IMG/VR virus record: IMGVR_UViG_2579778748_000004
Span: 1-35,810 of that record
DNA: 35,810 nucleotides
Direction: 5' to 3' (one strand)
Origin: a virus
Lineage: Duplodnaviria > Heunggongvirae > Uroviricota > Caudoviricetes
Position 1 is the stretch's first letter, and each line of letters starts with the position of its first letter. The translations under genes and the position numbers were made by a program. Below, in pieces: positions 7,048 to 33,915 of this stretch. The notes under the pieces were generated by a model. That model searched no databases, was not told the DNA's origin, and saw only the letters and a list, made by a program, of their open reading frames with translations.

Positions 7048-8238
7048 TTAATTGCTGTTAACCGAGGTGACCAGATTTGCCAGGTATTTATCGGTAATAC
7101 GCTGGCGCAGGGTCAGGTTTTCAAGAGGAGGCACCGGTGTATAGTCGTAGTCGATATACAGTTTTCCGGCCTTGAGGGTTTCCGCATCGTTGGATTCTTC
7201 GCTGAACCAGCAGGTCGCATCCACGATATAGCCGTTTGTTTTCAGCTCACGGAATTTGGCATTGATGCCGTCAACGATGTCGCGAATCAGCGTTGCGGTG
7301 ATGGGCTTGTCCACCGCCCACATGTGCGCCTCAGCCATCGTGTCGGCCAGCACCTGCGCGGTGCGGGTGTAGTTTTCAAAGAGGAACAGCGGGTCATCAG
7401 AGCAGGTACGGTTACCCCAGAATCGGAAACCGTCACGGCGAATCAGCGTTGTGACACCTGACTCGTTCAACAGGTCAGCATCGGTGCCGGACTCCTGCAA
7501 ATCCCAGAATACAGAGGCACTGATGCCGGTAACACCGTTTACCCCGACGTTGGACAGCGTTTTATGCCAGCCCTGCTCCTGGTCGATTTTAGCGCGCAGG
7601 CCCAGCGCACGGGCGGTGGCATACGCGGTGGCGGTGGTACTGGCGACCGTATCCCATGCGAGGAAATCCGGCCAGATGACCATCAGCTCACGCTGGCTGA
7701 AATTCTGGCGGTAGGCTTTCACCTCGGAAATGGTTTTACAGCCCCATGCACTGATATACCCGAAAGCGCGCAGCTTCTGACAGACTGATGCCAGTGCAAC
7801 CGCCACCTCTTTGGTGTCCAGTCCCGGCACACCGAGAATACGCGGTTTAACACCGGTAACCGACTCCGCCGCCAGCAGGGCTTTCAGTCCGGTGTACTGA
7901 CCGTTTTCGTCGGTGGTGCCGATGATATTGGAAACAGTCTGCGCGAGTTTCGTTTCTTCGTCTTCGCCGGTCCCGTCTTCCACACGCACGACAACGGTGA
8001 CCGGTTTTGACTGGTCGGCGATGGCCTGCAACGATGCCGCCAGCGTGCCTTTTTTACCGGCCTTTGCAATTGCGCTCTGCACATTGGTAATCAGCACCGG
8101 TTTATTGAGGGGGAAGGTTTCCGCATCCGCATCGCTGGCCGTGCAGACCATGCCGACAATGGCCGTGGATACGGTGGAAATGACGCGGGTGCCGTCGTTA
8201 ATCTCCAGCACCTGCACGCCGTGATGATAGTCACTCAT
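7048..8238 (-). CDS. FI: Contractile tail sheath protein FI
   Basis: 396 aa; P2 synteny; GGAG ribosome-binding site upstream of the ATG at 8238. Confidence 0.9.
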   Translation of the reverse strand: MSDYHHGVQVLEINDGTRVISTVSTAIVGMVCTASDADAETFPLNKPVLITNVQSAIAKAGKKGTLAASLQAIADQSKPVTVVVRVEDGTGEDEETKLAQTVSNIIGTTDENGQYTGLKALLAAESVTGVKPRILGVPGLDTKEVAVALASVCQKLRAFGYISAWGCKTISEVKAYRQNFSQRELMVIWPDFLAWDTVASTTATAYATARALGLRAKIDQEQGWHKTLSNVGVNGVTGISASVFWDLQESGTDADLLNESGVTTLIRRDGFRFWGNRTCSDDPLFLFENYTRTAQVLADTMAEAHMWAVDKPITATLIRDIVDGINAKFRELKTNGYIVDATCWFSEESNDAETLKAGKLYIDYDYTPVPPLENLTLRQRITDKYLANLVTSVNSN

Positions 8239-8332
8239 CCGTTTAACTCCGTGGTTAATGGGTGCAACTATTTTCCGTTGGGTAGTACATGAGACGCTAT
8301 TTGACCTAGCTGGTCAGGGGATGAAACAACAG

Positions 8333-8361
8333 ATAAAGAAAAGGCGGGAAATCAGCCCGCC
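8333..8361 (-). terminator. Intrinsic terminator separating the cargo/tail-fibre transcript from the FI operon
   Basis: Hairpin GGCGGG-AAATCAG-CCCGCC followed on the minus strand by TTTTCTTTAT. Confidence 0.55.
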
Positions 8362-8675
8362 TGTCCTGATTTGTACACACTCATTTTCCGACTGACTATT
8401 TACATAGCCGAAACGCTATCAAATATGACAGTCTGCTTTTAGCTAAGAGCGGAAGTTGTCACGAAGTTACTCTCCCCTGAGTGCAAATCCCCCAAAGTCA
8501 TTCGCAGATCAGTACCGAAAGGCGATCACTTTAACGCTCTGTATTGCGAGTGCTCAAATAAGGAGTGAGGCCATACCTACGTATTGAATCTGACGTTCTC
8601 ACACACGTTGAGCCCCAGCTCAATAGCGGCAGACCGACTGCTGAAAGAGCCGGTTAGCCAACTCAGCCCCTAGCA

Positions 8676-8740
8676 CGTAAAACTGCCCTAGATTTACTGC
8701 AGGGCAGTTAATGTAAAAGCCTCGCACTTGCGGAGGCAGT
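8676..8740 (-). terminator. Tandem hairpins downstream of the cargo operon
   Basis: Two stem-loops (about 8719..8737 and 8681..8709), each followed on the minus strand by TTTT, directly 3' of the 174-aa ORF stop. Confidence 0.45.
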
Positions 8741-8748
8741 ATTATAAT

Positions 8749-9273
8749 TCAAGCTTCATTCTTTAGTTTTTCAATGTGATTAACCTCATCATTGCTTGCT
8801 TTAGCTGCTGATTGGCCTTTCTTACTTATAATCCCTTTAACATAATTTACATTATCAATGGAGGCATCTAAGAATTTTTGAAACGACTTAGAATTAAGCA
8901 TTTCTGTCCAAGGAGTAGTATGATCTTCATCTTTCACAAAACGCAATGGAGCCTCTTCAAGTCGACTTAGCGCAGAATCAAATAAGCGTTTTTCGAACTC
9001 TCCATCTGATACCTTGCATGCCTCATTTTTGTATCCCTCATACGCTTTAGCCACAGAAGCTTTATAAGCATAATCCTCTGCGAGTTTGAAACGTTGATTA
9101 ATTTGTTTTGTAGACATCCAAGCAAACCAAAGAGGGGCGCCTATGCTAAAAACAGATAATAGTAATTGAGTGAGTATTACTACCGCACTAGGATTTGGGT
9201 TATTCAAAACCCCAGAAAGAACTTTCAATCTTTCATATCCGACTAAACCACCAAGCCCCAAAGCAACTGCCAA
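8749..9273 (-). CDS. Hypothetical membrane protein, second gene of the Z/fun-position cargo operon
   Basis: 174-aa ORF; strongly hydrophobic segment AVVILTQLLLSVFSIGAPLWFAW predicted as transmembrane; AT-rich compared with flanking phage genes; the ORF-track start is a TTG, so the true start is uncertain. Confidence 0.6.
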   Translation of the reverse strand: MAVALGLGGLVGYERLKVLSGVLNNPNPSAVVILTQLLLSVFSIGAPLWFAWMSTKQINQRFKLAEDYAYKASVAKAYEGYKNEACKVSDGEFEKRLFDSALSRLEEAPLRFVKDEDHTTPWTEMLNSKSFQKFLDASIDNVNYVKGIISKKGQSAAKASNDEVNHIEKLKNEA

Positions 9274-9398
9274 ACCGGCAACCCATAGTTGGATACTTCG
9301 GTTAAGCTTATCTGCTTTTATTTCAAATGCTCCTGCTAAGCCTTTCGATGTTGAAGCCCTAATAGCCTCTTCGCAAAGAGCCAGATACCGGGCAGCCT

Positions 9399-10049
9399 CT
9401 ATATTTTTTCTTGCAACTCATCAATAATTTTTTTTGCGGCTTCTTCTTGGGACTCTAAACTGAAATGAGTTTTAGATATCTTCTCCTTTAAATCAGATGC
9501 TTCTTTGTTGTATTCCTTTAATTCATTTAAGTCTATAGGTATATTTTCTGCAGCTACATGAGCATCATTAATCGTTTTAACTTTACTCTCAAGAGCATCC
9601 ATCTCAGGATCAATCTTGTTAATTCTCGCCTCCATGCTTTTAATTTTTCTGCTTAAATTTCTAGGAAGTAAATTAGCATTATCCAACCGCTTCCATGTAA
9701 ACGATTCATCCAAGAAATGGTCAACATATGCCAGTGTTAGCATATATGAAGATATAGCTCGTGCGGAGTTAACGCCTGAGAACTCTGGGACGTGAACTCT
9801 AATGAGTGTGTCAATTTTTTCAGGGAGAGATGAATAAGCGGCAATTTCTTTTTCAGTTAGTTCAATATCACCATATGCTTTCAGCTTGTTAATAATGCAA
9901 ATTATTTGGTCAATTAGGTCATCTGATGTTATTGCCGGAACATCAACCCCAAGAGTATTCGTCATCAACCCATCTTGGATGGTCAGACCTTCTATAGCCT
10001 TCTCAAGCCTCAAAAGTGCGTCATAAGTTCCCTTAAAGCCAGTATGCAT
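9399..10049 (-). CDS. Hypothetical coiled-coil protein, first gene of the Z/fun-position cargo operon
   Basis: 216-aa ORF with an ATG start; K/E-rich heptad-like C-terminus (…EARINKIDPEMDALESKVKTINDAH… and …ESQEEAAKKIIDELQEKI); AT-rich; no catalytic motif I can recognise. Confidence 0.65.
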   Translation of the reverse strand: MHTGFKGTYDALLRLEKAIEGLTIQDGLMTNTLGVDVPAITSDDLIDQIICIINKLKAYGDIELTEKEIAAYSSLPEKIDTLIRVHVPEFSGVNSARAISSYMLTLAYVDHFLDESFTWKRLDNANLLPRNLSRKIKSMEARINKIDPEMDALESKVKTINDAHVAAENIPIDLNELKEYNKEASDLKEKISKTHFSLESQEEAAKKIIDELQEKI

Positions 10050-10075
10050 ATTTTATTCCATGAACTTAAGTGATG

Positions 10076-10081
10076 ATTATA
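10076..10081 (-). promoter_or_regulatory. Candidate -10 hexamer (TATAAT) for the cargo operon
   Basis: Perfect TATAAT on the minus strand about 27 nt upstream of the 216-aa ORF start codon, in an AT-rich intergenic region; no good -35 at canonical spacing. Confidence 0.3.
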
Positions 10082-10343
10082 CAGGCTGCTTTGCAACCTG
10101 CTTTCGTTGTTAGTGTATGTAGCATATACATAATTCTATAGCGTATACCTATTCATTTTACCCTTCGTTTTCACAGGAAGCCATATGATTAATGCCGCTT
10201 AAAAAGCCAGCAGTGTAGTGGCATACGGATTTTGGCCACAGAAGCAGAAGTGTGGGATGTCCGCTCCTGGCACAGAGCGGACTGTCAGATTAGGCTTTAC
10301 TCTGTGCCATAGATATGTAAACTCCCACCAGAACTCATACAAC

Positions 10344-10871
10344 TTATTGCGGCATTTCTGGCCATTCAGGATTTGCAGTATCCACACGACTGACCAGAAC
10401 GTTGTAGCGTTCCCATGCTTCCAGTCGGCTGCGTTCCTCATCTGTTGCCATATTCAGCCTGACAGCGCGCTCCAGCGGCAAAATCACGGATTCAGCATCT
10501 GCAAGAAGTCTGCCTTTCCGATTTTCTGCCTGCTGCTGCAATTCCTCTGCCGTATAAATTCGTTTAATCACAGCACCATCCTTAAACATCCATTTACCTG
10601 AGTCGTCAGCACGTCGGTTGGAGGTAATATCAGGAACCTCAACAACGCTAAAACCTTCAGGATTAAGCGTTGAAGCATCTCTGGTGATAGCGACAATAAT
10701 ATTATTTTCATCGTAAACAATCTTTATTGTGTCTGGCTGAAAGTTCTTCACTTCCTCATACCAGTTTTTTCCGTCCTCAGAGTAAAGCCAGATAACTCCG
10801 TGTTTCTTTGTTAACTCATACTGTTCCAGTGTTTTAGCGTTACCCGCTTTTATGTTCTTTAAGTGCATCAT
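10344..10871 (-). CDS. G: Tail fibre assembly protein G
   Basis: 175 aa; directly downstream of the tail fibre gene; C-terminal ...[10 protein letters not shown] motif typical of tail-fibre assembly chaperones. Confidence 0.85.
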
Positions 10872-10872
10872 A

Positions 10873-13047
10873 TTAAACGCTCGCTACATTATACCAGGTG
10901 CCATTTATATACTTTTGAACGGGTCTGTAATAAACGCCCGCTATATTATCGGCAGAGTTGGACCCTGTATCCTGAACATTAATACCAGACAATACATGAC
11001 CTGACGGGCACTGGAAATTCCATGTTTGCCAGTTGTTCACTCCATAATATTGCTGTGAACCAAGTCGAACATCTTTCACATATCTGGAATCAAAATTGCC
11101 ATAGTTGCCGGGAATAACTTGCGAACCACAAAGCCAGTTACCGTTATTATCCATGTATGCCTGACCATCGGTGCCATTGGCTGTCCTTGAGTTATTAATC
11201 ATGTAGATGCCAAATTGCTTATTTCCCAGACCGCCAATCATAAATTTGCGGTCGGCATGGTCCTGACGGAGCAAAGCCTGAGCACCATCAGTGGATACCG
11301 CATTACGTCCAAAAATAACATTCTGGTCACGCATATGAATCCACATGCCTGTGCTGCTGTTAATTGCAAGGCGGTTTGCGTACACCCATGCGTTAGTTGT
11401 TATATCTCCTGTAACATCCAGAGCGTGCCCCATAGTTATGCGACCAGTTCTGAGATTCAACGAAAAGGGGCGTAGTGGCCCGATATCACCATTTTCCCCC
11501 TCATTCTCTCGTGTGGGGATAATATGCAGGCATTCTTCAGAACGGCGAAAAATAGCACCAAAGGATGAATTAAAGATTCTCAGTGCATTGACTGTCGATA
11601 TTTTTACTTCACTGCTGAAAAGGGCTTTAACAAGGACAGACAAAGCATCCCATTTAAGATTCATCAGGTCTTTTGTTGTGGTGCCCTGACGGCTTCTCCA
11701 TTTGAAATATTCATTGCCGTTGTCGCCTGTTTCAAACCACATGTATGAATCAGTGTCACCATCGGCATCATTTTTAAATCCAATCTTCGCCCAGTCAGTA
11801 TTTCGAATCCAGGCAAGGATTGAGTCGTTTTCAAAAGTAAGTCCACCGGACAAGGTATCGCCATTTTTTTGCACGGCGTTCCCGGCTCGGTTTACCGTTT
11901 CCTGTAAACCGAGATATTCGATAACGGCGGCAACGGTCGATTTAGCCAGAATATCCCGCCCGACTTTTGTCAGGGTCGCCAGGCTGGCAACATCATTCCC
12001 CGTAAAATACGGAAACCTGTCTGCCGCAGTAGCAAGCCCCGCCAGCGCCGTCAAAGTGGCATCTTTCGGTTGCTTACCCGCAAGCGCATTAGTCATGGTG
12101 GTAGCAAAATTCGGGTCATTGCCCAGCGCCGCCGCCAGCTCGTTCAGCGTATTCAGTGCGTCAGGCGACGAGTCTACAAGGGCGGCAATCGCGGCCATAA
12201 CGAAAGCCGTGTTTGCGATCTGAGTATTATTCGTTCCCTGTCGCGCAGTTGGCGTCGTTGGCGTTCCGGTCAGTGCAGGGCTGTTTAATGGCGCTTTCTT
12301 GTTCGTTTCATCCATTACCGTCTTAACGGCTTTTGGTGTTGCGGCGAGCGTTTCAGACATGCTGTTGGTCGCACTACTTAGCTGGACAAGACCTTTTCGC
12401 GCTGTGGTAGCGTCCTGTGCGGTATATTTCCCGTTAGCAAGGTCATATGCGGCCTTAACCGCTTTCGGCGTTGCGGCCAGTGTTTCAGATGTGCTGTTGG
12501 TCGCATTGCTTAACTGAGTAAAACCTTTTGCGGTCAGCGAGGCGTCCGGGTGACGTCGTGACTGTTCATGCTCTGCAATTTTGTCATCAACGTAATCCTG
12601 CGTCGCCATCACCGTTGTGGTGTCAATGGTCAGCTCCACTGAGGCCACACTGCTGACGATGATGACCATGCGGCAGGTCTGCGAACGCCCTGAGCCTTCG
12701 GCAAGGGCAGGTTTATAACTTTCGGCCATGTTCGCCACGGCAATTAACGTTCCCGCATCATCGTACAGGCCAAGCTCACGCATCCAGAAGCCGCCCACCT
12801 CCGGCGGAATAACCAGCTCTGCGATAATATAATTACTGTTTCGTTTGTCCTGGCTGATTTTGTTCAGCGCATGTCGCCAGACTTCGTGGATAAGCCCGGT
12901 CTGTCCGGCATCCGGGACAGGCAATTTACCACCGCCATCCCCGACGGCCATCGTGGTAATATTGACCTTCCGCCCTCCCGGTGCGGTTGCCGCTGCCAGC
13001 TTTGCTGCACCGGCAGTGGTGATAACGGTTTTGAATTTTGTGCTCAT
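10873..13047 (-). CDS. H: Tail fibre protein H
   Basis: 724 aa; N-terminus conserved with P2 gpH; contains a repeated [19 protein letters not shown] motif; the C-terminal receptor-binding region is expected to be variable. Confidence 0.85.
12322..12516. repeat. Internal 132-bp-period direct repeat within the tail fibre gene
   Basis: About 63 bp at 12322..12384 recurs at 12454..12516 with about 85% identity, matching a 44-aa protein repeat. Confidence 0.7.
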
Positions 13048-21913: not shown

Positions 21914-23686
21914 ATGACCATCACCACAGACACCACTCTTTTACACGACCCGCGTCGTCAGGCGGCGCTGCTGTACTGGCAGGGGTTTTCCGTGCCGCAG
22001 ATTGCCGCCATGTTGCAGATGAAACGCCCGACGGTGCAGAGCTGGAAACAGCGCGACGGCTGGGACAGCGTTGCTCCCATCAGCCGTGTCGAAATGAGTC
22101 TGGAAGCGCGGCTGACCCAGCTCATCATCAAACCGCAGAAAACCGGCGGTGACTTCAAGGAAATTGACCTGCTCGGACGCCAGATTGAACGACTGGCGCG
22201 GGTCAACCGTTACAGCCAGACCGGCAACGAGGCAGACCTTAATCCGAACGTTGCTAACCGCAACAAAGGCGGGCGTCGCAAACCGAAAAAGAATTTTTTC
22301 AGTGACGAGGCCATCGAAAAGCTGGAGCAGATTTTCTTTGAGCAGTCTTTCGAATATCAGTTGCACTGGTATCGCGCAGGGCTTGAGCACCGCATCCGCG
22401 ATATCCTGAAATCCCGCCAGATTGGCGCGACGTTTTATTTTTCCCGCGAGGCGCTGCTGCGCGCCCTGAAAACCGGTCATAACCAGATTTTTCTGTCGGC
22501 CAGTAAAACGCAGGCGTATGTGTTCCGCGAATACATCATCGCCTTTGCCCGGCTGGTTGACGTTGACCTGACCGGTGACCCAATTGTCCTGGGCAATAAC
22601 GGCGCAAAACTGATTTTTCTCGGCACCAACTCCAACACCGCACAGAGCCATAACGGCGACCTGTACGTCGACGAGATTTTCTGGATCCCGAATTTTCAGG
22701 TACTGCGTAAGGTGGCATCAGGTATGGCCTCACAGAGTCACCTGCGCTCGACCTATTTCTCCACCCCGTCCACGCTGGCGCACGACGCCTACCCGTTCTG
22801 GTCGGGTGAACTGTTCAACCGGGGACGCGCCAGCGCCGCCGAACGTGTGGAAATCGACGTCAGTCATAACGCCCTTGCCGGTGGTCTTCTCTGTGCGGAC
22901 GGCCAGTGGCGGCAGATTGTCACCATTGAGGACGCCCTGAAAGGCGGCTGCACATTGTTCGACATTGAGCAGCTCAAACGCGAAAACAGCGCCGACGATT
23001 TTAAAAACCTGTTCATGTGTGAATTTGTTGACGACAAGGCATCGGTGTTCCCGTTTGAGGAGCTGCAACGCTGCATGGTCGACACGCTGGAAGAATGGGA
23101 AGACTATGCGCCGTTTGCCGCCAATCCGTTCGGCTCACGTCCGGTATGGATTGGTTACGACCCGTCACACCGTGGCGACAGCGCCGGATGCGTGGTACTG
23201 GCACCGCCAGTGGTGGCCGGTGGCAAATTCAGAATACTTGAGCGTCACCAGTGGAAAGGCATGGACTTTGCCACTCAGGCGGAATCCATCCGCAAACTCA
23301 CCGAAAAATACAACGTCGAATACATCGGTATTGATGCCACCGGCCTCGGTGTCGGCGTGTTCCAGCTCGTGCGCTCGTTCTATCCCGCCGCGCGCGACAT
23401 CCGCTACACGCCGGAAATGAAAACCGCAATGGTGCTCAAGGCAAAAGACGTCATCCGCCGTGGCTGTCTGGAATATGACGTCAGCGCCACCGACATCACC
23501 AGCTCGTTTATGGCTATCCGCAAGACCATAACCAGCAGCGGACGCAGCGCCACCTATGAGGCCAGCCGCAGCGAGGAAGCCAGCCACGCCGACCTCGCCT
23601 GGGCAACCATGCACGCCCTGTTAAATGAGCCACTCACCGCCGGTATCAGCACCCCGCTGACATCCACCATTCTGGAGTTTTACTGA
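21914..23686 (+). CDS. P: Terminase large (ATPase) subunit P
   Basis: 590-aa product from the ATG at 21914 (MTITTDTTLLHDPRRQAALLYWQGFSVPQIAAML…) with a ribosome-binding site; the ORF-track start at 21884 is a TTG extension; divergent from O as in P2. Confidence 0.85.
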   Translation: MTITTDTTLLHDPRRQAALLYWQGFSVPQIAAMLQMKRPTVQSWKQRDGWDSVAPISRVEMSLEARLTQLIIKPQKTGGDFKEIDLLGRQIERLARVNRYSQTGNEADLNPNVANRNKGGRRKPKKNFFSDEAIEKLEQIFFEQSFEYQLHWYRAGLEHRIRDILKSRQIGATFYFSREALLRALKTGHNQIFLSASKTQAYVFREYIIAFARLVDVDLTGDPIVLGNNGAKLIFLGTNSNTAQSHNGDLYVDEIFWIPNFQVLRKVASGMASQSHLRSTYFSTPSTLAHDAYPFWSGELFNRGRASAAERVEIDVSHNALAGGLLCADGQWRQIVTIEDALKGGCTLFDIEQLKRENSADDFKNLFMCEFVDDKASVFPFEELQRCMVDTLEEWEDYAPFAANPFGSRPVWIGYDPSHRGDSAGCVVLAPPVVAGGKFRILERHQWKGMDFATQAESIRKLTEKYNVEYIGIDATGLGVGVFQLVRSFYPAARDIRYTPEMKTAMVLKAKDVIRRGCLEYDVSATDITSSFMAIRKTITSSGRSATYEASRSEEASHADLAWATMHALLNEPLTAGISTPLTSTILEFY

Positions 23687-24720
23687 TGAGCAAGAAAAAA
23701 GGGAAAACACCGCAACCTGCGGCAAAAACAATGACCGCCAGCGCCCCGAAAATGGAGGCATTCACCTTTGGTGAGCCGGTGCCGGTACTCGACCGCCGTG
23801 ACATTCTGGATTACGTCGAGTGCATCAGTAACGGCAGATGGTATGAGCCACCGGTCAGCTTTACCGGTCTGGCAAAAAGCCTGCGTGCTGCCGTGCATCA
23901 CAGCTCACCGATTTACGTCAAACGTAATATTCTGGCCTCGACATTTATCCCGCATCCGTGGCTTTCCCAGCAGGATTTCAGCCGCTTTGTGCTGGATTTT
24001 CTGGTGTTCGGTAATGCGTTTCTGGAAAAGCGTTACAGCACCACCGGTAAGGTCATCAGGCTGGAAACCTCACCGGCAAAATATACCCGCCGTGGTGTGG
24101 AAGAGGATGTTTACTGGTGGGTGCCGTCCTTCAACGAGCCGACAGCCTTCGCGCCCGGCTCCGTGTTTCACCTGCTGGAGCCGGATATTAATCAGGAGCT
24201 GTACGGCCTGCCGGAATATCTCAGCGCCCTTAATTCTGCCTGGCTGAATGAGTCGGCCACGCTGTTCCGCCGCAAGTATTACGAAAACGGCGCTCATGCC
24301 GGATATATCATGTACGTCACCGATGCCGTGCAGGATCGCAACGATATCGAAATGCTTCGCGAAAACATGGTCAAGTCGAAAGGCCGCAACAACTTTAAAA
24401 ATCTGTTTCTCTATGCCCCGCAGGGGAAAGCCGACGGCATTAAAATTATCCCGCTCAGTGAAGTGGCAACGAAGGACGATTTTTTTAATATCAAAAAAGC
24501 CAGCGCCGCTGACCTGCTGGACGCGCACCGCATCCCCTTTCAGTTGATGGGCGGCAAGCCGGAGAACGTCGGGTCGCTGGGTGATATTGAGAAAGTGGCA
24601 AAGGTCTTTGTCCGCAATGAGCTTATCCCTCTACAGGACAGGATCCGCGAGATAAACGGCTGGCTCGGTCAGGAGGTCATCCGCTTTAAAAACTACTCAC
24701 TGGACACTGACAACGGCTGA
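23686..24720 (+). CDS. Q: Portal protein Q
   Basis: 344 aa; start overlaps the P stop (TGATGA); P2 synteny. Confidence 0.9.
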   Translation: MSKKKGKTPQPAAKTMTASAPKMEAFTFGEPVPVLDRRDILDYVECISNGRWYEPPVSFTGLAKSLRAAVHHSSPIYVKRNILASTFIPHPWLSQQDFSRFVLDFLVFGNAFLEKRYSTTGKVIRLETSPAKYTRRGVEEDVYWWVPSFNEPTAFAPGSVFHLLEPDINQELYGLPEYLSALNSAWLNESATLFRRKYYENGAHAGYIMYVTDAVQDRNDIEMLRENMVKSKGRNNFKNLFLYAPQGKADGIKIIPLSEVATKDDFFNIKKASAADLLDAHRIPFQLMGGKPENVGSLGDIEKVAKVFVRNELIPLQDRIREINGWLGQEVIRFKNYSLDTDNG

Positions 24721-24725
24721 ACATC

Positions 24726-24747
24726 GCCGCCTGCGGGCGGCTTTTTT
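24726..24747 (+). terminator. Intrinsic terminator after Q
   Basis: Hairpin GCCGCC-TGCG-GGCGGC followed by TTTTTT, immediately 3' of the Q stop. Confidence 0.7.
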
Positions 24748-24889
24748 ACACCCCGTCATCACGCCCTCACACGCTCACCACCGCACAAAACACCCCGCAG
24801 ACACACCAACGCCTCAACGGGCAGACTAAGCGCCTTCACGACGCGCTCAGACGCTGAAAAAATAAAATCAGCACCACCGCCAGCGCGCA

Positions 24890-24908
24890 GTGCTTTCCCC
24901 GCCTCGCC
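24890..24908. other. cos site (19-nt cohesive-end sequence)
   Basis: GTGCTTTCCCCGCCTCGCC is the reverse complement of the P2 cohesive end GGCGAGGCGGGGAAAGCAC as I recall it; located between Q and the early region as in P2. Confidence 0.75.
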
Positions 24909-25059
24909 CGCCCGCTTCATAGGTCGGTTTTAATGCAGGTGCATTACCACTTTTGAGGGGCGTCCGTCCTGACGGTGCACAGCCAGAACATGCAACTTAG
25001 GCACATGCAAAACCACGCACATATTGCATGCACTGCTAAAAATAGGAGTATCGCAGAAA

Positions 25060-25096
25060 AAAACACAAAAAAACCGGCATTCATAGTGCCGGTTTT
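25060..25096. terminator. Bidirectional intrinsic terminator
   Basis: Hairpin CCGGCA-TTCATAG-TGCCGG flanked by an A-run on the 5' side and a T-run on the 3' side. Confidence 0.5.
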
Positions 25097-25231
25097 GGCC
25101 AATTTTTAAAGTTGTCACTGGCCGCGCAATGCACCAATCTCACTGTTGACGCACATGTTGACAACAATTAGCAGAACAATCGTGTCCACACATTTTTACA
25201 AACGACACCTAACAGATTGATACAGATCATT

Positions 25232-25426
25232 TTATTTGTTCATTCGAATATAATTCAATAGCATCTTGATGACCTGAGCGAGTTCTACGCTAGTTGCCTG
25301 CGCAACCAGCTTATCGGTATATATGTCAACTTCGCGTGAACTAAGATCATTGTTTTGTGCCAGAGTGGTAATCTGCCTCGTCCAGCGTTTAACCCACTCA
25401 TTATCAAAAGAAATGGAATTTTGCAT
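25232..25426 (-). CDS. Hypothetical small protein (64 aa), divergent from the cargo genes; may be spurious
   Basis: AT-rich ORF whose ATG shares the palindrome CATG with the start of the opposite-strand 145-aa ORF; no convincing ribosome-binding site. Confidence 0.25.
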   Translation of the reverse strand: MQNSISFDNEWVKRWTRQITTLAQNNDLSSREVDIYTDKLVAQATSVELAQVIKMLLNYIRMNK

Positions 25427-25862
25427 GTCGAAAAATCTCGATTTATTTAACCAACAAACGGCGGAAATCTTTGCAGTACTATGGGAAAATTTTCCCGTAC
25501 CACAGGTGATTAACTACGACAAATTTAACGCCGCGCTACCTGATGACTACTTTGACCAACTTAACTCACCAGAAATGAAAGCGTTAAATCAGTTGCGTAG
25601 TGTGGTTGAAGGTACATTCAATTTTCTCTGTGAAAACGGGTACATTCAGTACAACACAGACCATCAGTCGTATTTTTACGATGTTCGACTTACTGAAAAA
25701 GCGCTCACAGTTCTTAACAAAAAACCCGAGGTGCTTGGTGGAAATGAAACGATGGGGGATAAAGTGATCAGTGCGGTGAAAGATGGGACTCCTGGGGTCA
25801 TTGCCGGTGTGATTACAAATCTGCTGACTCACGGCGTTAATCTGGTTGCGTCAGTGTCATAG
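25425..25862 (+). CDS. Hypothetical protein (about 145 aa), first gene of the old/tin-position cargo
   Basis: ORF-track frame 25323..25862; likely starts at the ATG at 25425 (MSKNLDLFNQQ…) or 25413; AT-rich; soluble-looking; no motif I can assign. Confidence 0.6.
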   Translation: MSKNLDLFNQQTAEIFAVLWENFPVPQVINYDKFNAALPDDYFDQLNSPEMKALNQLRSVVEGTFNFLCENGYIQYNTDHQSYFYDVRLTEKALTVLNKKPEVLGGNETMGDKVISAVKDGTPGVIAGVITNLLTHGVNLVASVS

Positions 25863-26024
25863 CCAACGCCCCAAAGAGACTCATTGTCCCTCGTCACACT
25901 ACTTGCTTTTAGTTCTGACGAGATTAAATCCGCTCACAGTGTTTACTGCGGAAAAGTTGCGTTATTATCCATATGATTTAACATCTTGGATTCATGTTAA
26001 TTCACAGTTTAATAAGGATATGGA

Positions 26025-27116
26025 ATGGGTTACGAAATTGATTTTCTAGCTGTTGGCGAAAAAAAAAGCGGCGATGCGATCTGCATCAGATGGGGAAACC
26101 TACATGGTTCAAGAGATGAACAAAAAGTTGTCGTTATTGATGCAGGATATGCCAGCACCGGAGAACAAGTCATTGAGCATATTGAAAAATACTACCGCAC
26201 AAAAACTATTGACTTGCTTATCTCCACACACCCCGATGGTGACCACGTCGGTGGACTTACATCTGTTCTAGAAAATGCAGAAGTAAAAGAGTTTTGGATT
26301 CATAAGCCTTGGGAACATAATCAAGGTCTCGCAAGTGAGTTTGCAGATGGCAGGATAACTGATGCCAGTATTGCAAATCGAATGAAAGAAAACTTACAAA
26401 AAGCTTATGACGCTGTCAAATTAGCGGAAAAAAAAGGAATTGAAATAAAAGAGCCTTTTCAAGGAATGACCTGGGATAATGCTACTCTGGTTGTTATCGG
26501 GCCAACCCAATCTTACTATGAGACTCTAATACCTGATTTCGCAAGAATGCCCAAAAAAGCTGAGGATACAGCTGGATTTGAAGTACTAAAAGCAGTCTTT
26601 GAGTCTGTAGTTGAAAAAACGAAGAAATTTATTGATTACGTTGCTGAATGGTTTACTGATGAAGGTATTGATAATGAAGATACCACCTCGGCACAAAATA
26701 ACTCAAGTGTCATTTTGAAACTTGAGATTGATGGAAGAACGTTAGTGTTCACTGGCGATGCTGGTATAACAGCCTTAGATCAAGCCTCCCAATACATTAA
26801 TAAAGAATCATTAAGATTCATTCAAGTACCTCATCATGGTAGCCGGAGAAATGTAGGCCCTGATGTTCTCGATAAACTTGTTGGTAACATTGTAAATGAA
26901 GGCGAAAAAAGGGAGATAACCGCATTTGTATCATGTGCCCCAGGTTCAGATAAACATCCCCATCAAGCTGTAATTAATGCCTTTACTCGACGAGGAGCGA
27001 AAGTTATCGCCACCGAGGGGCTTGGTAAGTACCATTTTTATAATGCTCCTGAAAGGGCAGGATGGAAAACAGCCACTCCACGATCATACATTAGTAACTA
27101 TAGAACCGAAGAATAA
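26025..27116 (+). CDS. Metallo-beta-lactamase-fold protein, ComEC/Rec2-like, putative nuclease
   Basis: 363 aa with AAGGA ribosome-binding site; motif series VVVIDAGY, THPDGDHVGG (H-x-D-x-D-H), VFTGDAG and VPHHGSR fits the metallo-beta-lactamase fold of the ComEC type as I recall it; AT-rich. Confidence 0.7.
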   Translation: MGYEIDFLAVGEKKSGDAICIRWGNLHGSRDEQKVVVIDAGYASTGEQVIEHIEKYYRTKTIDLLISTHPDGDHVGGLTSVLENAEVKEFWIHKPWEHNQGLASEFADGRITDASIANRMKENLQKAYDAVKLAEKKGIEIKEPFQGMTWDNATLVVIGPTQSYYETLIPDFARMPKKAEDTAGFEVLKAVFESVVEKTKKFIDYVAEWFTDEGIDNEDTTSAQNNSSVILKLEIDGRTLVFTGDAGITALDQASQYINKESLRFIQVPHHGSRRNVGPDVLDKLVGNIVNEGEKREITAFVSCAPGSDKHPHQAVINAFTRRGAKVIATEGLGKYHFYNAPERAGWKTATPRSYISNYRTEE

Positions 27117-27129
27117 TTCAAAAGCTGCC

Positions 27130-27750
27130 TTACGGCAGCTTATTATTAACAGCATTTACTCTATATATTATGTATCTTATTTGTTTAATATATGAGACAA
27201 CAAACAAAATAGCAAAAACCGCCAACGTTATTTTAGATAAGCCATATGTCTCGCCAGTAAACCGTCCTACAACGCACAATGTCGCCAAAAGAATAATTGA
27301 CATTGAAAATATCGTCCTATACATATTCGCAATCTCTTGCAAAGTTTCAATTTTTCCATCCACACCACATGCTGACACATAATCTTTATAAGGAGCAAAC
27401 TTAATCAAACGCGATAGTTTTAAAAAAGGTTCCAATACGATAGAACCAATCCGGCCAATGACTAAGCCAACAAAATAATAGAGGACAACATTTTTTATTA
27501 AATCATCGCCAGATAAAACGATATTCGTCATTCTCTCAAGAAGATAAATAAAAAGAGCACCTGGAAAAAGATTATTAAATATATTATATGACGATATTTT
27601 TTCCCATAAACCATCCATACCAATCACCTTACTACAGTTTAAATCAGAGATCATTTTCATTGAAAAATACATATATAGCAAGAAATCTATAGCGATTCTG
27701 ACATCCAACCTGAGTCTATCAGTAGTTAATCTCTTCAGAAAAGAGTGCAT
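27130..27750 (-). CDS. Hypothetical multi-pass membrane protein (about 206 aa)
   Basis: ORF 27130..27762, with ATG at 27750; four to five hydrophobic helices; very AT-rich; convergent with the MBL-fold gene, stops 13 bp apart. Confidence 0.6.
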   Translation of the reverse strand: MHSFLKRLTTDRLRLDVRIAIDFLLYMYFSMKMISDLNCSKVIGMDGLWEKISSYNIFNNLFPGALFIYLLERMTNIVLSGDDLIKNVVLYYFVGLVIGRIGSIVLEPFLKLSRLIKFAPYKDYVSACGVDGKIETLQEIANMYRTIFSMSIILLATLCVVGRFTGETYGLSKITLAVFAILFVVSYIKQIRYIIYRVNAVNNKLP

Positions 27751-27904
27751 AACGAAAACCAATCACAGGAAATCGGCTATGTAAATTTTCGACCGTCGTA
27801 TATCAATGGTACACCACGCCCCCCACGCTTACATTACTTCTGTGTGATGCCATACTGAGCGAGGTCTATATAAATACTAGTAATTTATCACAAACCTGAT
27901 TTGA

Positions 27905-28049
27905 TCAGCCTCGCGATGGCACAAATGCAAGCGGTTTTAACGGACTTCCGTTTCTTTGCTGACGATTTGGTATTCTCAGACCGTGTTTTAATGCACCTCT
28001 GAGCGCCCTCACGACCGCCGGATCATTCCATTCGATTACCCGTCATCAA
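27905..28049. repeat. Degenerate direct repeat of the A 3' region, copy 1 (spans the A stop codon)
   Basis: About 120 bp at 27931..28049 is roughly 92% identical to 28263..28382 inside A; weaker similarity extends about 25 bp further upstream. Confidence 0.75.
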
Positions 28050-30378
28050 ATTGATTCCACTCTGTTATAGTTGAATATCCCGGCCACTCATCAGCGACCG
28101 GATACGTGAATTTTTTCCCGTCATAATTTACGGTTGCCCCACGCGCCAGCGACTCAAGCTCCCATCGCTGAGGTCTGATACCGTTCTGAGCAAGATCAAC
28201 GCGAATACGGGTAATTTGCAATCGCTCCGACCTGGTCAGCCTGGCTGATGGCGCTATTTCATGCGGTTTTAACGGACTTCCGTTTCTTTGCTGACGATTT
28301 GGTGTTCTCAGTCCGCATTTTAATGCACCTCTGAGCGCCCTCACAACCTCCGGGTCACTCCATTCGATAACACCGTCATCAACCAGATTAAGCACTGCTG
28401 CGGCGTGTTCAGAAGGTGTGGGAGCCGGTAACGAAGTATCACCACCGGTGAGCTTTCCACAGTTATTGACAGGACTCCGAGGCGCGGCGATGCCGCTTTT
28501 TAAAGTCAAAGGCTCAACGACCGGAACTTTCGGCACAATGCGCCAGTCCGTCGTTCTGGTGATATGAATATGACGCGCGCCGAGATGCGGCGCGTAAATG
28601 CCGACCACTCTCCCGACTTCTTCCTCGTACTCGTTAACGTCATCCGACGGGCTACGGGCGACTCTGACAGTCTGGCAATCACGCGGAACATTTGCCCCAC
28701 CCTGCGCGCTGATATACAACGCAAAATCACCACTGTCTGCGGCGGCACGTGCAGCCTCAACTCGTTCGTCAAACTCATCAGCAATGCTGACGCCGCGAGG
28801 CAATTTGCGTAGTTCACGGTAAGCCCCCATTGTCGGCAGGCCAACCGTTTTAAATTGCGGGATGCGCCACGTTGACGCCCATGCGGTAACAGCCGCAGCA
28901 GTATCTTTCAGCGGCCTGCCGGTATCGTTATCGAGCTGACCATCCAGTGCATAGCCATCGATGTTTTTTGAGATGTATTTCGCGATATACCCCGCAGCAC
29001 CGCCCCGGTTAAGATGTTTTGCCTGAAAACGGTTTCGCGCGGCTCCTCTTTCGTCGCCATCCTCTTTGAGCGCATAGCGACGCATGATTTCGATAATCTG
29101 GTTACGCTGGCGTGGATTACAAAAAAGCATCATATGCCAGTGCGGCGTTCCGTCGTGGTGTGGCTCGACGACTCGCAAACCGTAGACCTGTAAATCATTA
29201 TCCTTGAATGCCGTGCGCATCAGGCTCCAGATACGGCAGAGATAACGCTGCGCATCCTTTGGATTAAATGCCTCATCGTTCCAGCCGTGATTAAGCTGAA
29301 CGGTTTTACTTTCGCCTTTTCTGACCTGACGAGTCGGGTGATACTTTGACGGCGCGGTCAGCGTGATAAACATCCCCACATCACCCTCTGCGGCGGCGTA
29401 ACGCTCAATACCGGCAATGGTGTTCATCAGCTCCATCCGGCGAATTTCAGGATTAGAAATACTGCCCATCACCTTACTGATAAGGTCGATGCGCTCGCCG
29501 GTTTCCCTGTTTTCAAGGTCACACGATTTAAGAAATTCCAGATTTGCCTGGCGGCGCGCACGCACATCACGAATGGCGTGTTTACTGGCATAAGGAGAAC
29601 GGTCTTTATTGACCTCCCCGACAGCTATCAGTAACGCTTCATGCCAGCGCATACGCTGGCCTTTAAGCTGATGAGTCCACCACTCATCGTTAAACAGACG
29701 GGCAATGGCAGAATATGCCTGCCTCGTGGTCATCTGCCCTTTACGGTATTTTTTCCAGTAGAGAGGGGAAATATTGAAAGCACGTGCAGCGCCAGCAACA
29801 TGACCATAGAGGTGAGCCTGCGCCTCATCCGTAAACAGCGATTCTTTTTCGCCATGCGCATCCACCCAGGCATCGCTGAGTTCCTCATACATCATGAAAA
29901 GCTGCGATGAGATACGGGCAGCAAACTTTTTCAGCTCCTTGTCATTCATTCCCGGCAGGCGCGCATAGTGGTCACGCTCTGCCAGAAACAGTAACGACGC
30001 GTCGGTGTTCATTTCATGGCGCTGATTCACACGCTCAATGCGCGGCCATAAACGACGCTGAAAAGTGGATGTGAGGAAATAAAACCCGTGTACCGGGCTT
30101 TTATTGCGCCGGATGTAGTCATAGCGTGAAGTAAACAGCGAGCGCAAAAAGTAAGGCAGGCGGTTAATCGTGGATAAAACACCTTGCACCTGACGCATCT
30201 CGTCACGTGTAAGGGGTCTTTCGCGCCCGACGGCCTCGCGTGGCGCGTTCCATGCATAAGCACCGGTAAACGCCTTACCGGTGCCTGCAGCAAATGCTGA
30301 AGGAGGGACAAAACGCCCGGAGGCTTTAACGGCCATATGAGCCAAAAGCCTCTGAACAACGCCTGCTGAGTTGCTCAA
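28036..30378 (-). CDS. A: Replication initiation protein A (rolling-circle HUH endonuclease)
   Basis: 780 aa; HUH-type motif …TPHWHMMLF… and tyrosine pair …YIAKYISKNIDGY…; P2 synteny. Confidence 0.9.
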   Translation of the reverse strand: MSNSAGVVQRLLAHMAVKASGRFVPPSAFAAGTGKAFTGAYAWNAPREAVGRERPLTRDEMRQVQGVLSTINRLPYFLRSLFTSRYDYIRRNKSPVHGFYFLTSTFQRRLWPRIERVNQRHEMNTDASLLFLAERDHYARLPGMNDKELKKFAARISSQLFMMYEELSDAWVDAHGEKESLFTDEAQAHLYGHVAGAARAFNISPLYWKKYRKGQMTTRQAYSAIARLFNDEWWTHQLKGQRMRWHEALLIAVGEVNKDRSPYASKHAIRDVRARRQANLEFLKSCDLENRETGERIDLISKVMGSISNPEIRRMELMNTIAGIERYAAAEGDVGMFITLTAPSKYHPTRQVRKGESKTVQLNHGWNDEAFNPKDAQRYLCRIWSLMRTAFKDNDLQVYGLRVVEPHHDGTPHWHMMLFCNPRQRNQIIEIMRRYALKEDGDERGAARNRFQAKHLNRGGAAGYIAKYISKNIDGYALDGQLDNDTGRPLKDTAAAVTAWASTWRIPQFKTVGLPTMGAYRELRKLPRGVSIADEFDERVEAARAAADSGDFALYISAQGGANVPRDCQTVRVARSPSDDVNEYEEEVGRVVGIYAPHLGARHIHITRTTDWRIVPKVPVVEPLTLKSGIAAPRSPVNNCGKLTGGDTSLPAPTPSEHAAAVLNLVDDGVIEWSDPEVVRALRGALKCGLRTPNRQQRNGSPLKPHEIAPSARLTRSERLQITRIRVDLAQNGIRPQRWELESLARGATVNYDGKKFTYPVADEWPGYSTITEWNQFDDG
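28237..28382. repeat. Degenerate direct repeat of the A 3' region, copy 2 (inside the A coding sequence)
   Basis: Pairs with 27905..28049; within A it encodes ...VDDGVIEWSDPEVVRALRGALKCGLRTPNRQQRNGSPLKPHE. Confidence 0.75.
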
Positions 30379-32901: not shown

Positions 32902-33915
32902 ATGGCAATCAAAAAACTCGATGATGGTCGATATGAAGTGGACATCCGCCCTACTGGACGTAACGGAAAACGCATCCGTAGGAAGTTTGATAAGAAAAGC
33001 GAAGCTGTCGCTTTCGAAAAATACACGTTGTACAACCACCACAATAAAGAATGGCTATCAAAACCAACAGACAAACGACGTCTGTCGGAACTGACACAGA
33101 TCTGGTGGGATTTAAAGGGTAAACACGAAGAGCATGGGAAATCTAATCTTGGAAAAATTGAAATCTTCACAAAAATAACGAATGACCCATGCGCATTTCA
33201 AATCACGAAATCCCTTATCAGCCAGTACTGCGCCACCCGAAGAAGTCAGGGTATTAAACCTTCGAGTATCAATCGTGATTTAACATGTATTAGCGGCATG
33301 TTTACAGCCCTGATTGAAGCGGAGTTATTCTTTGGTGAGCACCCTATCAGAGGGACAAAGAGGCTTAAGGAGGAAAAACCAGAAACAGGCTATCTCACAC
33401 AGGAAGAAATTGCCTTACTGCTTGCAGCACTTGACGGCGACAACAAAAAGATTGCGATTCTTTGCCTGAGTACAGGAGCACGTTGGGGAGAAGCAGCTCG
33501 TTTGAAAGCAGAAAATATCATCCATAACCGCGTCACGTTTGTTAAAACGAAAACAAACAAACCACGCACCGTCCCGATCTCAGAGGCTGTTGCCAAAATG
33601 ATCGCGGATAACAAACGAGGTTTTTTATTCCCTGATGCTGATTACCCTCGCTTCAGACGAACAATGAAAGCAATAAAACCGGATTTGCCAACGGGGCAAG
33701 CCACACATGCACTAAGGCACAGCTTTGCCACTCATTTCATGATTAATGGAGGAAGTATTATCACGCTACAACGGATACTAGGTCACACGCGGATTGAGCA
33801 AACTATGGTTTACGCTCATTTTGCGCCAGAGTACCTTCAGGACGCCATTTCTCTTAATCCGCTAAGAGGTGGTACTGAAGCCGAGAGTGTCCACACAGTG
33901 TCCACAGTAGAGTAA
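32902..33915 (+). CDS. int: Tyrosine integrase Int
   Basis: 337 aa; tyrosine-recombinase catalytic region (…HALRHSFATHFM…ILGHTRIEQTMVYAHF…); located next to the att core. Confidence 0.9.
   Translation: MAIKKLDDGRYEVDIRPTGRNGKRIRRKFDKKSEAVAFEKYTLYNHHNKEWLSKPTDKRRLSELTQIWWDLKGKHEEHGKSNLGKIEIFTKITNDPCAFQITKSLISQYCATRRSQGIKPSSINRDLTCISGMFTALIEAELFFGEHPIRGTKRLKEEKPETGYLTQEEIALLLAALDGDNKKIAILCLSTGARWGEAARLKAENIIHNRVTFVKTKTNKPRTVPISEAVAKMIADNKRGFLFPDADYPRFRRTMKAIKPDLPTGQATHALRHSFATHFMINGGSIITLQRILGHTRIEQTMVYAHFAPEYLQDAISLNPLRGGTEAESVHTVSTVE

Follow-up and report, generated by a model that had tools for sequence, protein, structure and literature searches.

A ComEC-type metallo-beta-lactamase protein and a four-helix membrane protein as a candidate two-gene defense module in the gpA-gpQ hotspot of a P2-like prophage

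We analyzed a 35,810-nucleotide stretch of viral DNA (IMG/VR record IMGVR_UViG_2579778748_000004, positions 1 to 35,810; here, the window), the whole of which is a complete P2-like prophage flanked by a peptidase-U32 gene of the host on one side and by a yegS-like gene on the other. Its variable cargo region encodes a 363-aa protein of the metallo-beta-lactamase (MBL) fold (26025..27116, + strand, ATG start) and, 13 bp away in convergent orientation, a four-helix inner-membrane protein of 162 aa (27130..27618, - strand). In our favored reading, to which we give a probability of roughly 0.45, the pair is a two-gene defense module of the P2 gpA-gpQ hotspot whose enzyme is a membrane-localized or membrane-gated nuclease. 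The module would probably be directed against phages and perhaps against plasmids too. By its profile matches, the locus is a member of the PADLOC candidate system PDC-M48. The MBL protein matched PDC-M48B (PDLC04676) at 1.1e-100, with residues 3-357 on profile positions 5-353 of 357, and the membrane protein matched PDC-M48A (PDLC04670) at 1.5e-50. PADLOC entries of the PDC-x type are unpublished, unverified candidates; the find is already catalogued but uncharacterized, a good experimental target and no surprise.

The MBL gene is preceded by a Shine-Dalgarno sequence (AAGGA, 26014..26018, + strand) 6 nt upstream of its ATG. A sequence-only reading of this open reading frame (ORF) had picked out four motifs as the signature of the ComEC/Rec2 MBL domain, and all of them were found in the order it gave, starting at residues 35 (VVVIDAGY), 68 (THPDGDHVGG), 241 (VFTGDAG) and 268 (VPHHGSR). 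The top PDB sequence matches were ComEC beta-lactamase-like domains (9ic4, 2.5e-8; 30bt, 1.9e-6), which have H-x-D-x-D-H within STHPDxDHxGG, NNxS, the bridging Asp and VPHHGSR in common with the MBL protein. In the AlphaFold2 model (37 homologues; predicted local distance difference test [pLDDT] score 87.1, predicted template modeling score 0.88), the MBL fold starts at residue 1, and the top Foldseek match was the crystal structure of the Moorella glycerini ComEC domain, again 9ic4 (E 4e-13, TM-score 0.75 normalized to the target). The ComEC-type assignment was thereby upheld by sequence and fold comparison alike. The second-best Foldseek match was the pneumococcal phosphorylcholine esterase Pce (E about 1e-10), and RNase Z/J, CPSF73/IntS11 and Cas14 came further down the list. 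The Pfam profile Lactamase_B matched above its cutoff (6e-12), and no Pfam domain other than those of the Lactamase_B type was detected in the protein.

Counting along the ComEC alignment (chain-to-paper numbering offset of 531), we placed H69, D71, D73 and H74 of motif 2 (codons for H69-P-D71-G-D73-H74, 26229..26246, + strand) on ComEC H598, D600, D602 and H603. D245 of motif 4 (26757..26759, + strand) falls on the bridging D700, and H270-H271-G272-S273 (26832..26843, + strand) on H725..S728. In ComEC, H598-x-D600-x-D602-H603 replaces the usual H-x-H-x-D-H, D700 serves as a metal ligand, and DNA is contacted by H725 and S728 (PMC12455585); the variant motif named in the sequence-only reading is thus a documented one. 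Alanine mutants of ComEC lose the Mn2+-dependent endonuclease and 5'-exonuclease activities, with the exception of D600A, which shows a drop of about 5-fold; DNase activity has been demonstrated for Moorella ComEC domains only (PMC12455585).

The motif match is not coincidental. Across 74 distinct homologues reaching down to 24% identity, D17, D39, H69, D73, H74, N225, D245 and H270-H271-G272-S273 were invariant (74/74). Residue 71 (codon 26235..26237) was the ComEC-type D in 63 of the 74 and the canonical MBL H in the remaining 11, a variation that agrees with the mild effect of D600A in ComEC. Such strict conservation of the catalytic site indicates that enzyme activity matters. By homology, metal-dependent DNA cleavage is the likeliest activity, and we infer that the protein is a nuclease.

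At the domain level, then, the MBL protein is ComEC-type, but it is not a ComEC protein. It is without the channel domain (PF03772), the OB fold (DUF4131) and any hydrophobic segment of ComEC, and its score with TIGR00361 was 49.2 bits against a cutoff of 190, with only profile positions 558-660 of 663 matched. No hydrophobic segment, signal peptide or transmembrane segment was found in the protein, which is predicted to be cytoplasmic, whereas the corresponding domain of ComEC is extracytoplasmic. From the motif 2 His (H74) to the bridging Asp (D245) there are 171 residues, compared with 97 in ComEC, and therefore an insertion of about 74 residues. According to the alignment and the AlphaFold2 model, this family-specific insertion lies inside the MBL fold at residues about 95-215 (26307..26669, + strand); it is partly helical, has a low-confidence loop at 184-198 and is acidic (net charge -6; family median, -5). 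The 170 unassigned residues that the sequence-only reading had placed after the core fold are in fact those between H74 and D245, within the fold. By alignment arithmetic, the C terminus is about 20 residues longer than that of the ComEC domain.

Relatives outside the ComEC type scored poorly. Profiles of true beta-lactamases, glyoxalase II and RNase Z gave 12-19 bits against cutoffs of 200 or more; for instance, the B1 beta-lactamase, B3 beta-lactamase and GloB profiles gave 17.9, 18.6 and 17.1 bits (cutoffs of 200, 240 and 200.8) and matched the N-terminal motif region only. A grouping with glyoxalase II or true beta-lactamases, either of which would have counted against the original assignment, was not seen. 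MBL profiles from defense systems outscored ComEC (49 bits), with PDC-M48B at 335 bits, the Lamassu protein LmuA at 101 bits (1.6e-29), RTasMBL, the MBL associated with defense reverse transcriptases (DRT), at 70 bits (4e-20) and Avs1a at 62 bits.

The membrane protein is encoded from an ATG at 27618. Its ORF could be extended to 210 aa, but the PDC-M48A profile begins at residue 49 of that longer ORF, RefSeq annotates 489 nt, and a Shine-Dalgarno sequence (AAGGTGA, 27624..27630, - strand) stands upstream of the ATG; for these reasons, we take 162 aa as the true length. The AlphaFold2 model (pLDDT 88.6) has helices at residues 11-31, 40-68, 89-121 and 126-159. From the charge distribution, both termini are predicted to be cytoplasmic (N-in/C-in), with a basic cytoplasmic loop and tail. 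The protein matched phrog_11864 at 6.6e-98, and 23 residues are invariant in its family (family A, below), including R56 inside the second transmembrane helix. Neither Pfam nor NCBIfam contained a matching family, and no structural relative was detected in PDB (best E, 0.38) or BFVD (best E, 0.21). An inverted repeat with 7-bp arms (AGCTGCC-TTAC-GGCAGCT, 27123..27140, no strand assigned) spans the intergenic gap and the stop codon of the membrane gene; the terminator scan did not flag it.

Contrary to the description of the MBL protein as a stand-alone domain, its gene is half of a conserved two-gene module. An exhaustive profile search returned 699 family representatives (clusters at 50% identity) at E <= 1e-30 from many phyla, and the family spans the candidate phyla radiation (CPR), Actinobacteria, Firmicutes, Bacteroidota and Proteobacteria. 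The top 150 representatives were uniformly about 340-380 aa long, except for a few that had N-terminal extensions of about 90 aa. Of the 80 genome and 66 viral loci that we fetched, 85 contain a gene for a full-length homologue of the MBL protein, with 24-100% identity and from many phyla. The genomic pairing is obligate in character, with a multi-transmembrane partner beside the MBL gene in 78 of these 85 loci. The partners belong to three families, namely, A (about 160 aa, the type found in the window), B1 (about 250 aa) and B2 (about 210 aa). The typical gap was -20 to +18 bp, and in most loci the two genes abutted. Pairing was also recovered in the reciprocal direction, with distant family-A proteins found beside an MBL gene in Faecalibacillus (Firmicutes; genes overlapping, transmembrane gene first) and in a Porphyromonas conjugative transposon (Bacteroidota).

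Gene order differs between lineages. All enterobacterial P2-like members (58-100% MBL identity), including the isolated phages 12W, D8, 11W and P24E6b, carry the partner gene in inverted, convergent orientation, as opposed to the tight co-directional operon of most other lineages. Apparent gaps of 1.2-2 kb had hinted at a three-gene variant, which was rejected because most of these gaps were artifacts of over-extended ORF starts. In three loci only (L038, 6213..7334; L039, 6773..7789; L011, 1852..2676), a further ComEC-type MBL paralogue stands between the MBL gene and the membrane gene.

The partner families could not be merged. Alignment of A with B1 and B2 by hhalign gave E values of 0.22 and 0.13, and iterative hidden Markov model (HMM) searches never joined the families; support for a relation of B1 to B2 was weak (E 3.6e-4, probability 37%). 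Two short motifs are common to families A (A4) and B1 (L014, L018 and others), namely, [KS]-Y-N-x-x-[NA]-[NR]-x-[FY]-P at the N terminus and R-x-G-x(3-4)-E after the second transmembrane helix. There was no significant profile match between the two families all the same, and the motifs could be a hint of very distant homology and nothing firmer. In a neighbor-joining tree of the MBL proteins (no support values), the partner types were interspersed, the P2 clade (A) being sister to a Vibrio/Chromobacterium clade (B2), a pattern that suggests partner exchange.

The genomic surroundings are those of defense islands and mobile elements. Within the window, the pair lies in the low-GC island between the portal gene (23686..24720, PF04860) and the gpA replication gene (28036..30378, - strand, PF05840, 1.4e-122). 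This island, the gpQ-gpA "old/tin" hotspot of P2 (24721..28035), has a GC content of 0.36-0.42, against about 0.55. The prophage-hotspot setting proposed from the sequence is confirmed. The gpA-gpQ locus is a known hotspot of anti-phage cargo, holding old and tin in phage P2 itself (PMC9122126). Table S5A of the same study (Rousset 2022) lists for the P2 hotspot the exact gene set WP_021561351 + WP_021561350 + WP_001752367 + WP_023908566; the systems described in its main text are the validated ones, and nothing is said there of a test of the MBL gene set (PMC9122126). The 139 neighboring ORFs analyzed contained no third recurring gene family and were typical of defense islands and mobile elements (type III restriction-modification [RM], AAA_15/21, HerA, UvrD, VWA, integrases, resolvases and IS21). 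In Vibrio loci, the module is flanked by type I RM and, on its opposite side, by a VWA/PP2C/kinase cluster, and one copy of the module adjoins a Tn7-like TniB/TniQ.

Given these results, the module could work as follows. The first gene would supply a cytoplasmic MBL-fold enzyme with a complete ComEC-type binuclear metal site, presumably a metal-dependent DNase, and the second a small four-helix inner-membrane protein with basic cytoplasmic faces, which would tether the nuclease to the membrane or gate it there. The targets would be DNA molecules on their way through the inner membrane, such as an injected phage genome or conjugating DNA, and the nucleoid and the resident prophage would not be attacked. 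A partner, or localization, is plausibly needed since the ComEC MBL domain alone binds DNA poorly and depends on an adjacent OB fold (PMC12455585), and since the MBL protein is acidic. We infer that the two proteins interact, that the enzyme is localized at the membrane and that the phenotype of the pair is anti-phage. We favor a membrane-localized or membrane-gated nuclease because the active site is conserved, because a partner is plausibly needed and because there are precedents in SNIPE, Zorya and Kiwa. The ComEC nuclease domain as top fold match, the defense systems in which related MBLs are components, the conserved pairing without a third recurring gene and the genomic context count in its favor as well.

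SNIPE consists of a transmembrane segment, DUF4041 and a GIY-YIG nuclease and, like the pair, combines a conserved nuclease with a poorly conserved, exchangeable membrane-targeting element; the same pattern here (nuclease highly conserved, membrane partner exchangeable) supports a defense nuclease. Removal of the anchor makes the SNIPE nuclease toxic; anchoring prevents self-cleavage, and a resident prophage is not attacked (PMC13190303). The pair is not SNIPE itself. There is no homology between them, and SNIPE is a single polypeptide with a GIY-YIG nuclease and the DNA-binding DUF4041, unlike the two polypeptides, MBL enzyme and absence of an identified DNA-binding module in the pair. Kiwa (a KwaA membrane tetramer plus KwaB), which also has two genes, and Zorya (ZorAB plus ZorC/D) resemble the pair in joining a membrane component to a cytoplasmic DNA-targeting effector, but KwaB binds DNA without cleaving it and Zorya has a proton-driven motor. 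Neither PADLOC nor Pfam gave a match to KwaA/B, ZorA-D or DUF4041-GIY-YIG; the resemblance is architectural only. If validated, the module would be a widespread two-gene addition to the few defenses that tell self from non-self by location at the membrane (Zorya, Kiwa and SNIPE), and the ComEC-type nuclease, known from DNA uptake, would prove to have been turned to the opposite purpose, the destruction of incoming DNA. The pair is compact (about 1.6 kb) and native to Escherichia coli P2-like prophages and isolated phages, which makes it easy to test; one native lysogen is E. coli 4/1-1 (NZ_CP023844.1, 2350671..2352264).

Several observations weigh against this reading. The second-best fold match is a phosphorylcholine esterase and no nuclease, and the MBL protein is acidic (pI 5.5), as is its insertion, with no obvious DNA-binding surface. 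None of the top 150 family representatives is a fusion of the MBL and transmembrane genes. Homology between the three partner families could not be detected, which argues against a single conserved interface. The convergent genes of the P2 clade are separately transcribed; the scan for consensus promoters did not rise above shuffled sequence and in fact returned fewer sites. The literature that could be searched contained no experiment on PDC-M48. Failure is common among PADLOC PDC candidates: no defense was seen with PDC-M63 or PDC-S04, and a separate study validated just 4 of 8 candidates.

A more specific form of the favored reading, which we put forward tentatively as a possibility, treats the pair as a split, cytoplasm-facing counterpart of ComEC. 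The partner would station and gate the DNase at the inner face of the membrane, where it would destroy foreign DNA during injection or conjugation; immunity would be direct and non-abortive, and the exchangeable A, B1 and B2 types would decide to which entry route or membrane cue the module responds. If true, the pair would be a two-component, MBL-based equivalent of SNIPE, present in most bacterial phyla and serving phages as a means of keeping rivals out.

Among the rival explanations, the best survivor reverses the roles, the membrane protein being an abortive-infection effector that depolarizes or permeabilizes the membrane, with death or arrest of the cell, and the MBL protein a sensor or signal processor that might, for instance, cleave a phage nucleic acid or a nucleotide signal controlling the membrane protein. 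We consider this unlikely but worth weighing. Small transmembrane proteins often act as suicide effectors (CBASS, retrons and the system of a HAD hydrolase plus a transmembrane protein described by Rousset are examples), the invariant polar residues inside the helices of family A (R56, S59 and E63) would suit a channel-like function, and one B2 partner weakly matched Csx27, the transmembrane accessory protein of type VI-B CRISPR (6e-5). In the 6A-MBL pathway, in which the role of MBLs has been described (PMC11601596), the MBL is treated as a "signalling enzyme" that gets conjugated. However, modular systems mostly swap effectors and keep sensors specific, and reversed roles would need three unrelated transmembrane effectors reading one signal. 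In addition, related ComEC-type MBLs match the profiles of the nuclease effectors LmuA and Avs1a, and no cyclase or other signal generator was seen among the neighbors.

It is improbable that the pair is instead an addiction or inter-element competition module, in which a nuclease or membrane toxin and its partner stabilize the prophage, integrative and conjugative element or transposon that carries them or exclude rival plasmids. The diversity of the carriers, which include a conjugative transposon and a Tn7-like element besides P2-like phages, would fit this, as would the finding that about a quarter of P2 hotspots carry non-defense cargo such as partition systems (PMC9122126) and the fact that Kiwa and SNIPE-like logic also acts on plasmids. 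Nevertheless, neither protein resembles a toxin-antitoxin family in Pfam, NCBIfam or PADLOC, and the surroundings are rich in RM and other defense genes. We consider it very improbable that, as in the original reading, a free-standing ComEC-type nuclease acts on incoming or host DNA, alone and with the membrane gene irrelevant. The complete, uniformly single-domain enzyme of about 360 aa and the position of its neighbor on the opposite strand in the P2 clade agree with it, but the adjacency of the partner in 78/85 loci from different phyla, borne out by the reciprocal test, does not; PADLOC models the pair as a two-gene system, and the convergent arrangement has itself been kept from 58% to 100% MBL identity. 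Least probable of all is a Pce-like phosphodiesterase acting on a membrane-proximal non-nucleic-acid substrate (for instance, a lipid-linked envelope precursor) in lysogenic conversion or receptor modification, for although Pce/CbpE is the second-best fold match and the closest structural relative of the ComEC MBL domain (PMC12455585), and although the protein is acidic, it has no signal peptide or transmembrane segment, its family occurs in phyla with very different envelopes, the equivalents of the ComEC DNA contacts H725 and S728 are invariant, and the contexts are those of defense and mobile elements, not of envelope biosynthesis.

Other described systems were ruled out as identities of the pair. 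Avs1a, LmuA (MBL type), the DRT-associated MBL and the 6A-MBL enzyme have a homologous MBL domain, but the scores were far below the family cutoffs, and no STAND NTPase, SMC-like LmuB, reverse transcriptase or E2-E1-JAB partner was present in the window. For the 6A-MBL system, the enzyme profile NF058524 gave 33.9 bits against a cutoff of 220, and the hotspot contained no Cap2/3-like E2-E1-JAB ORF; for Avs1 (AVAST type 1), Avs1a reached 62 of the 420 bits required, and there was no NTPase gene in 24721..28035. Rst_Hydrolase-3Tm (Rousset 2022) is similar in pairing a hydrolase with a multi-transmembrane protein in a P2/P4-family hotspot, but its hydrolase is HAD-like and comes from the P4 hotspot.

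Aeromonas and Vibrio loci from the wider survey show companions of other kinds. In Aeromonas enteropelogenes (L158, 296..4052), a membrane gene of family A converges on a 6A-MBL-like operon, in which the E2-E1-JAB fusion scored 286 bits (cutoff, 320) and the MBL 213 bits (cutoff, 220); family-A membrane proteins may also serve a validated MBL defense system. In Vibrio navarrensis, the MBL gene is directly preceded by a gene (L003, 5303..5836; L005, 5180..5836) that matched the PDC-S63 and SduA/DUF4263 nuclease profiles and may be another candidate system or an accessory gene, while a VWA/PP2C/kinase cluster and a large AAA_11/AAA_12 helicase lie downstream.

The analysis also corrects three public annotations. 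The MBL protein is identical to WP_021561350.1, and 23 of 5,426 complete E. coli genomes encode it with 100% identity. PGAP names it "ComEC/Rec2 family competence protein," so the ComEC idea was not new, and the name overstates the relationship. NCBI sources call the four-helix partner "phosphohistidine phosphatase," which is probably wrong, given that the protein has no Pfam or NCBIfam match and no structural relative. Lastly, phrog_7043, a 1077-position "tail protein" profile, matched the MBL protein at about 1e-153 over profile positions 619-901, and in Peduovirus P24E6b (NC_049389.1) a gene under the match to the pair is labeled "tail protein" in RefSeq; phrog_7043 looks like a chimeric PHROG with a propagated misannotation.

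As for the rest of the prophage, its integrase gene lies at 32902..33915. Upstream of the MBL gene, the hotspot holds two divergent ORFs of unknown function, of 64 aa (25232..25426, - strand, phrog_2454) and 144 aa (25428..25862, + strand, phrog_2266). P2-like phages of Klebsiella, Salmonella and others have both ORFs but lack the MBL pair, which marks the two as separate cargo of the hotspot and ruled them out as parts of the system. A second low-GC island (0.38-0.47) is located at about 8300..10900, between a 396-aa ORF (7048..8238, - strand), which from its location is probably the tail sheath gene of P2, and the tail-fiber assembly gene (10344..10871, - strand). Two ORFs in this island (8749..9273 and 9399..10049, both - strand) had no Pfam match, and the island may represent cargo in the other variable locus of P2.

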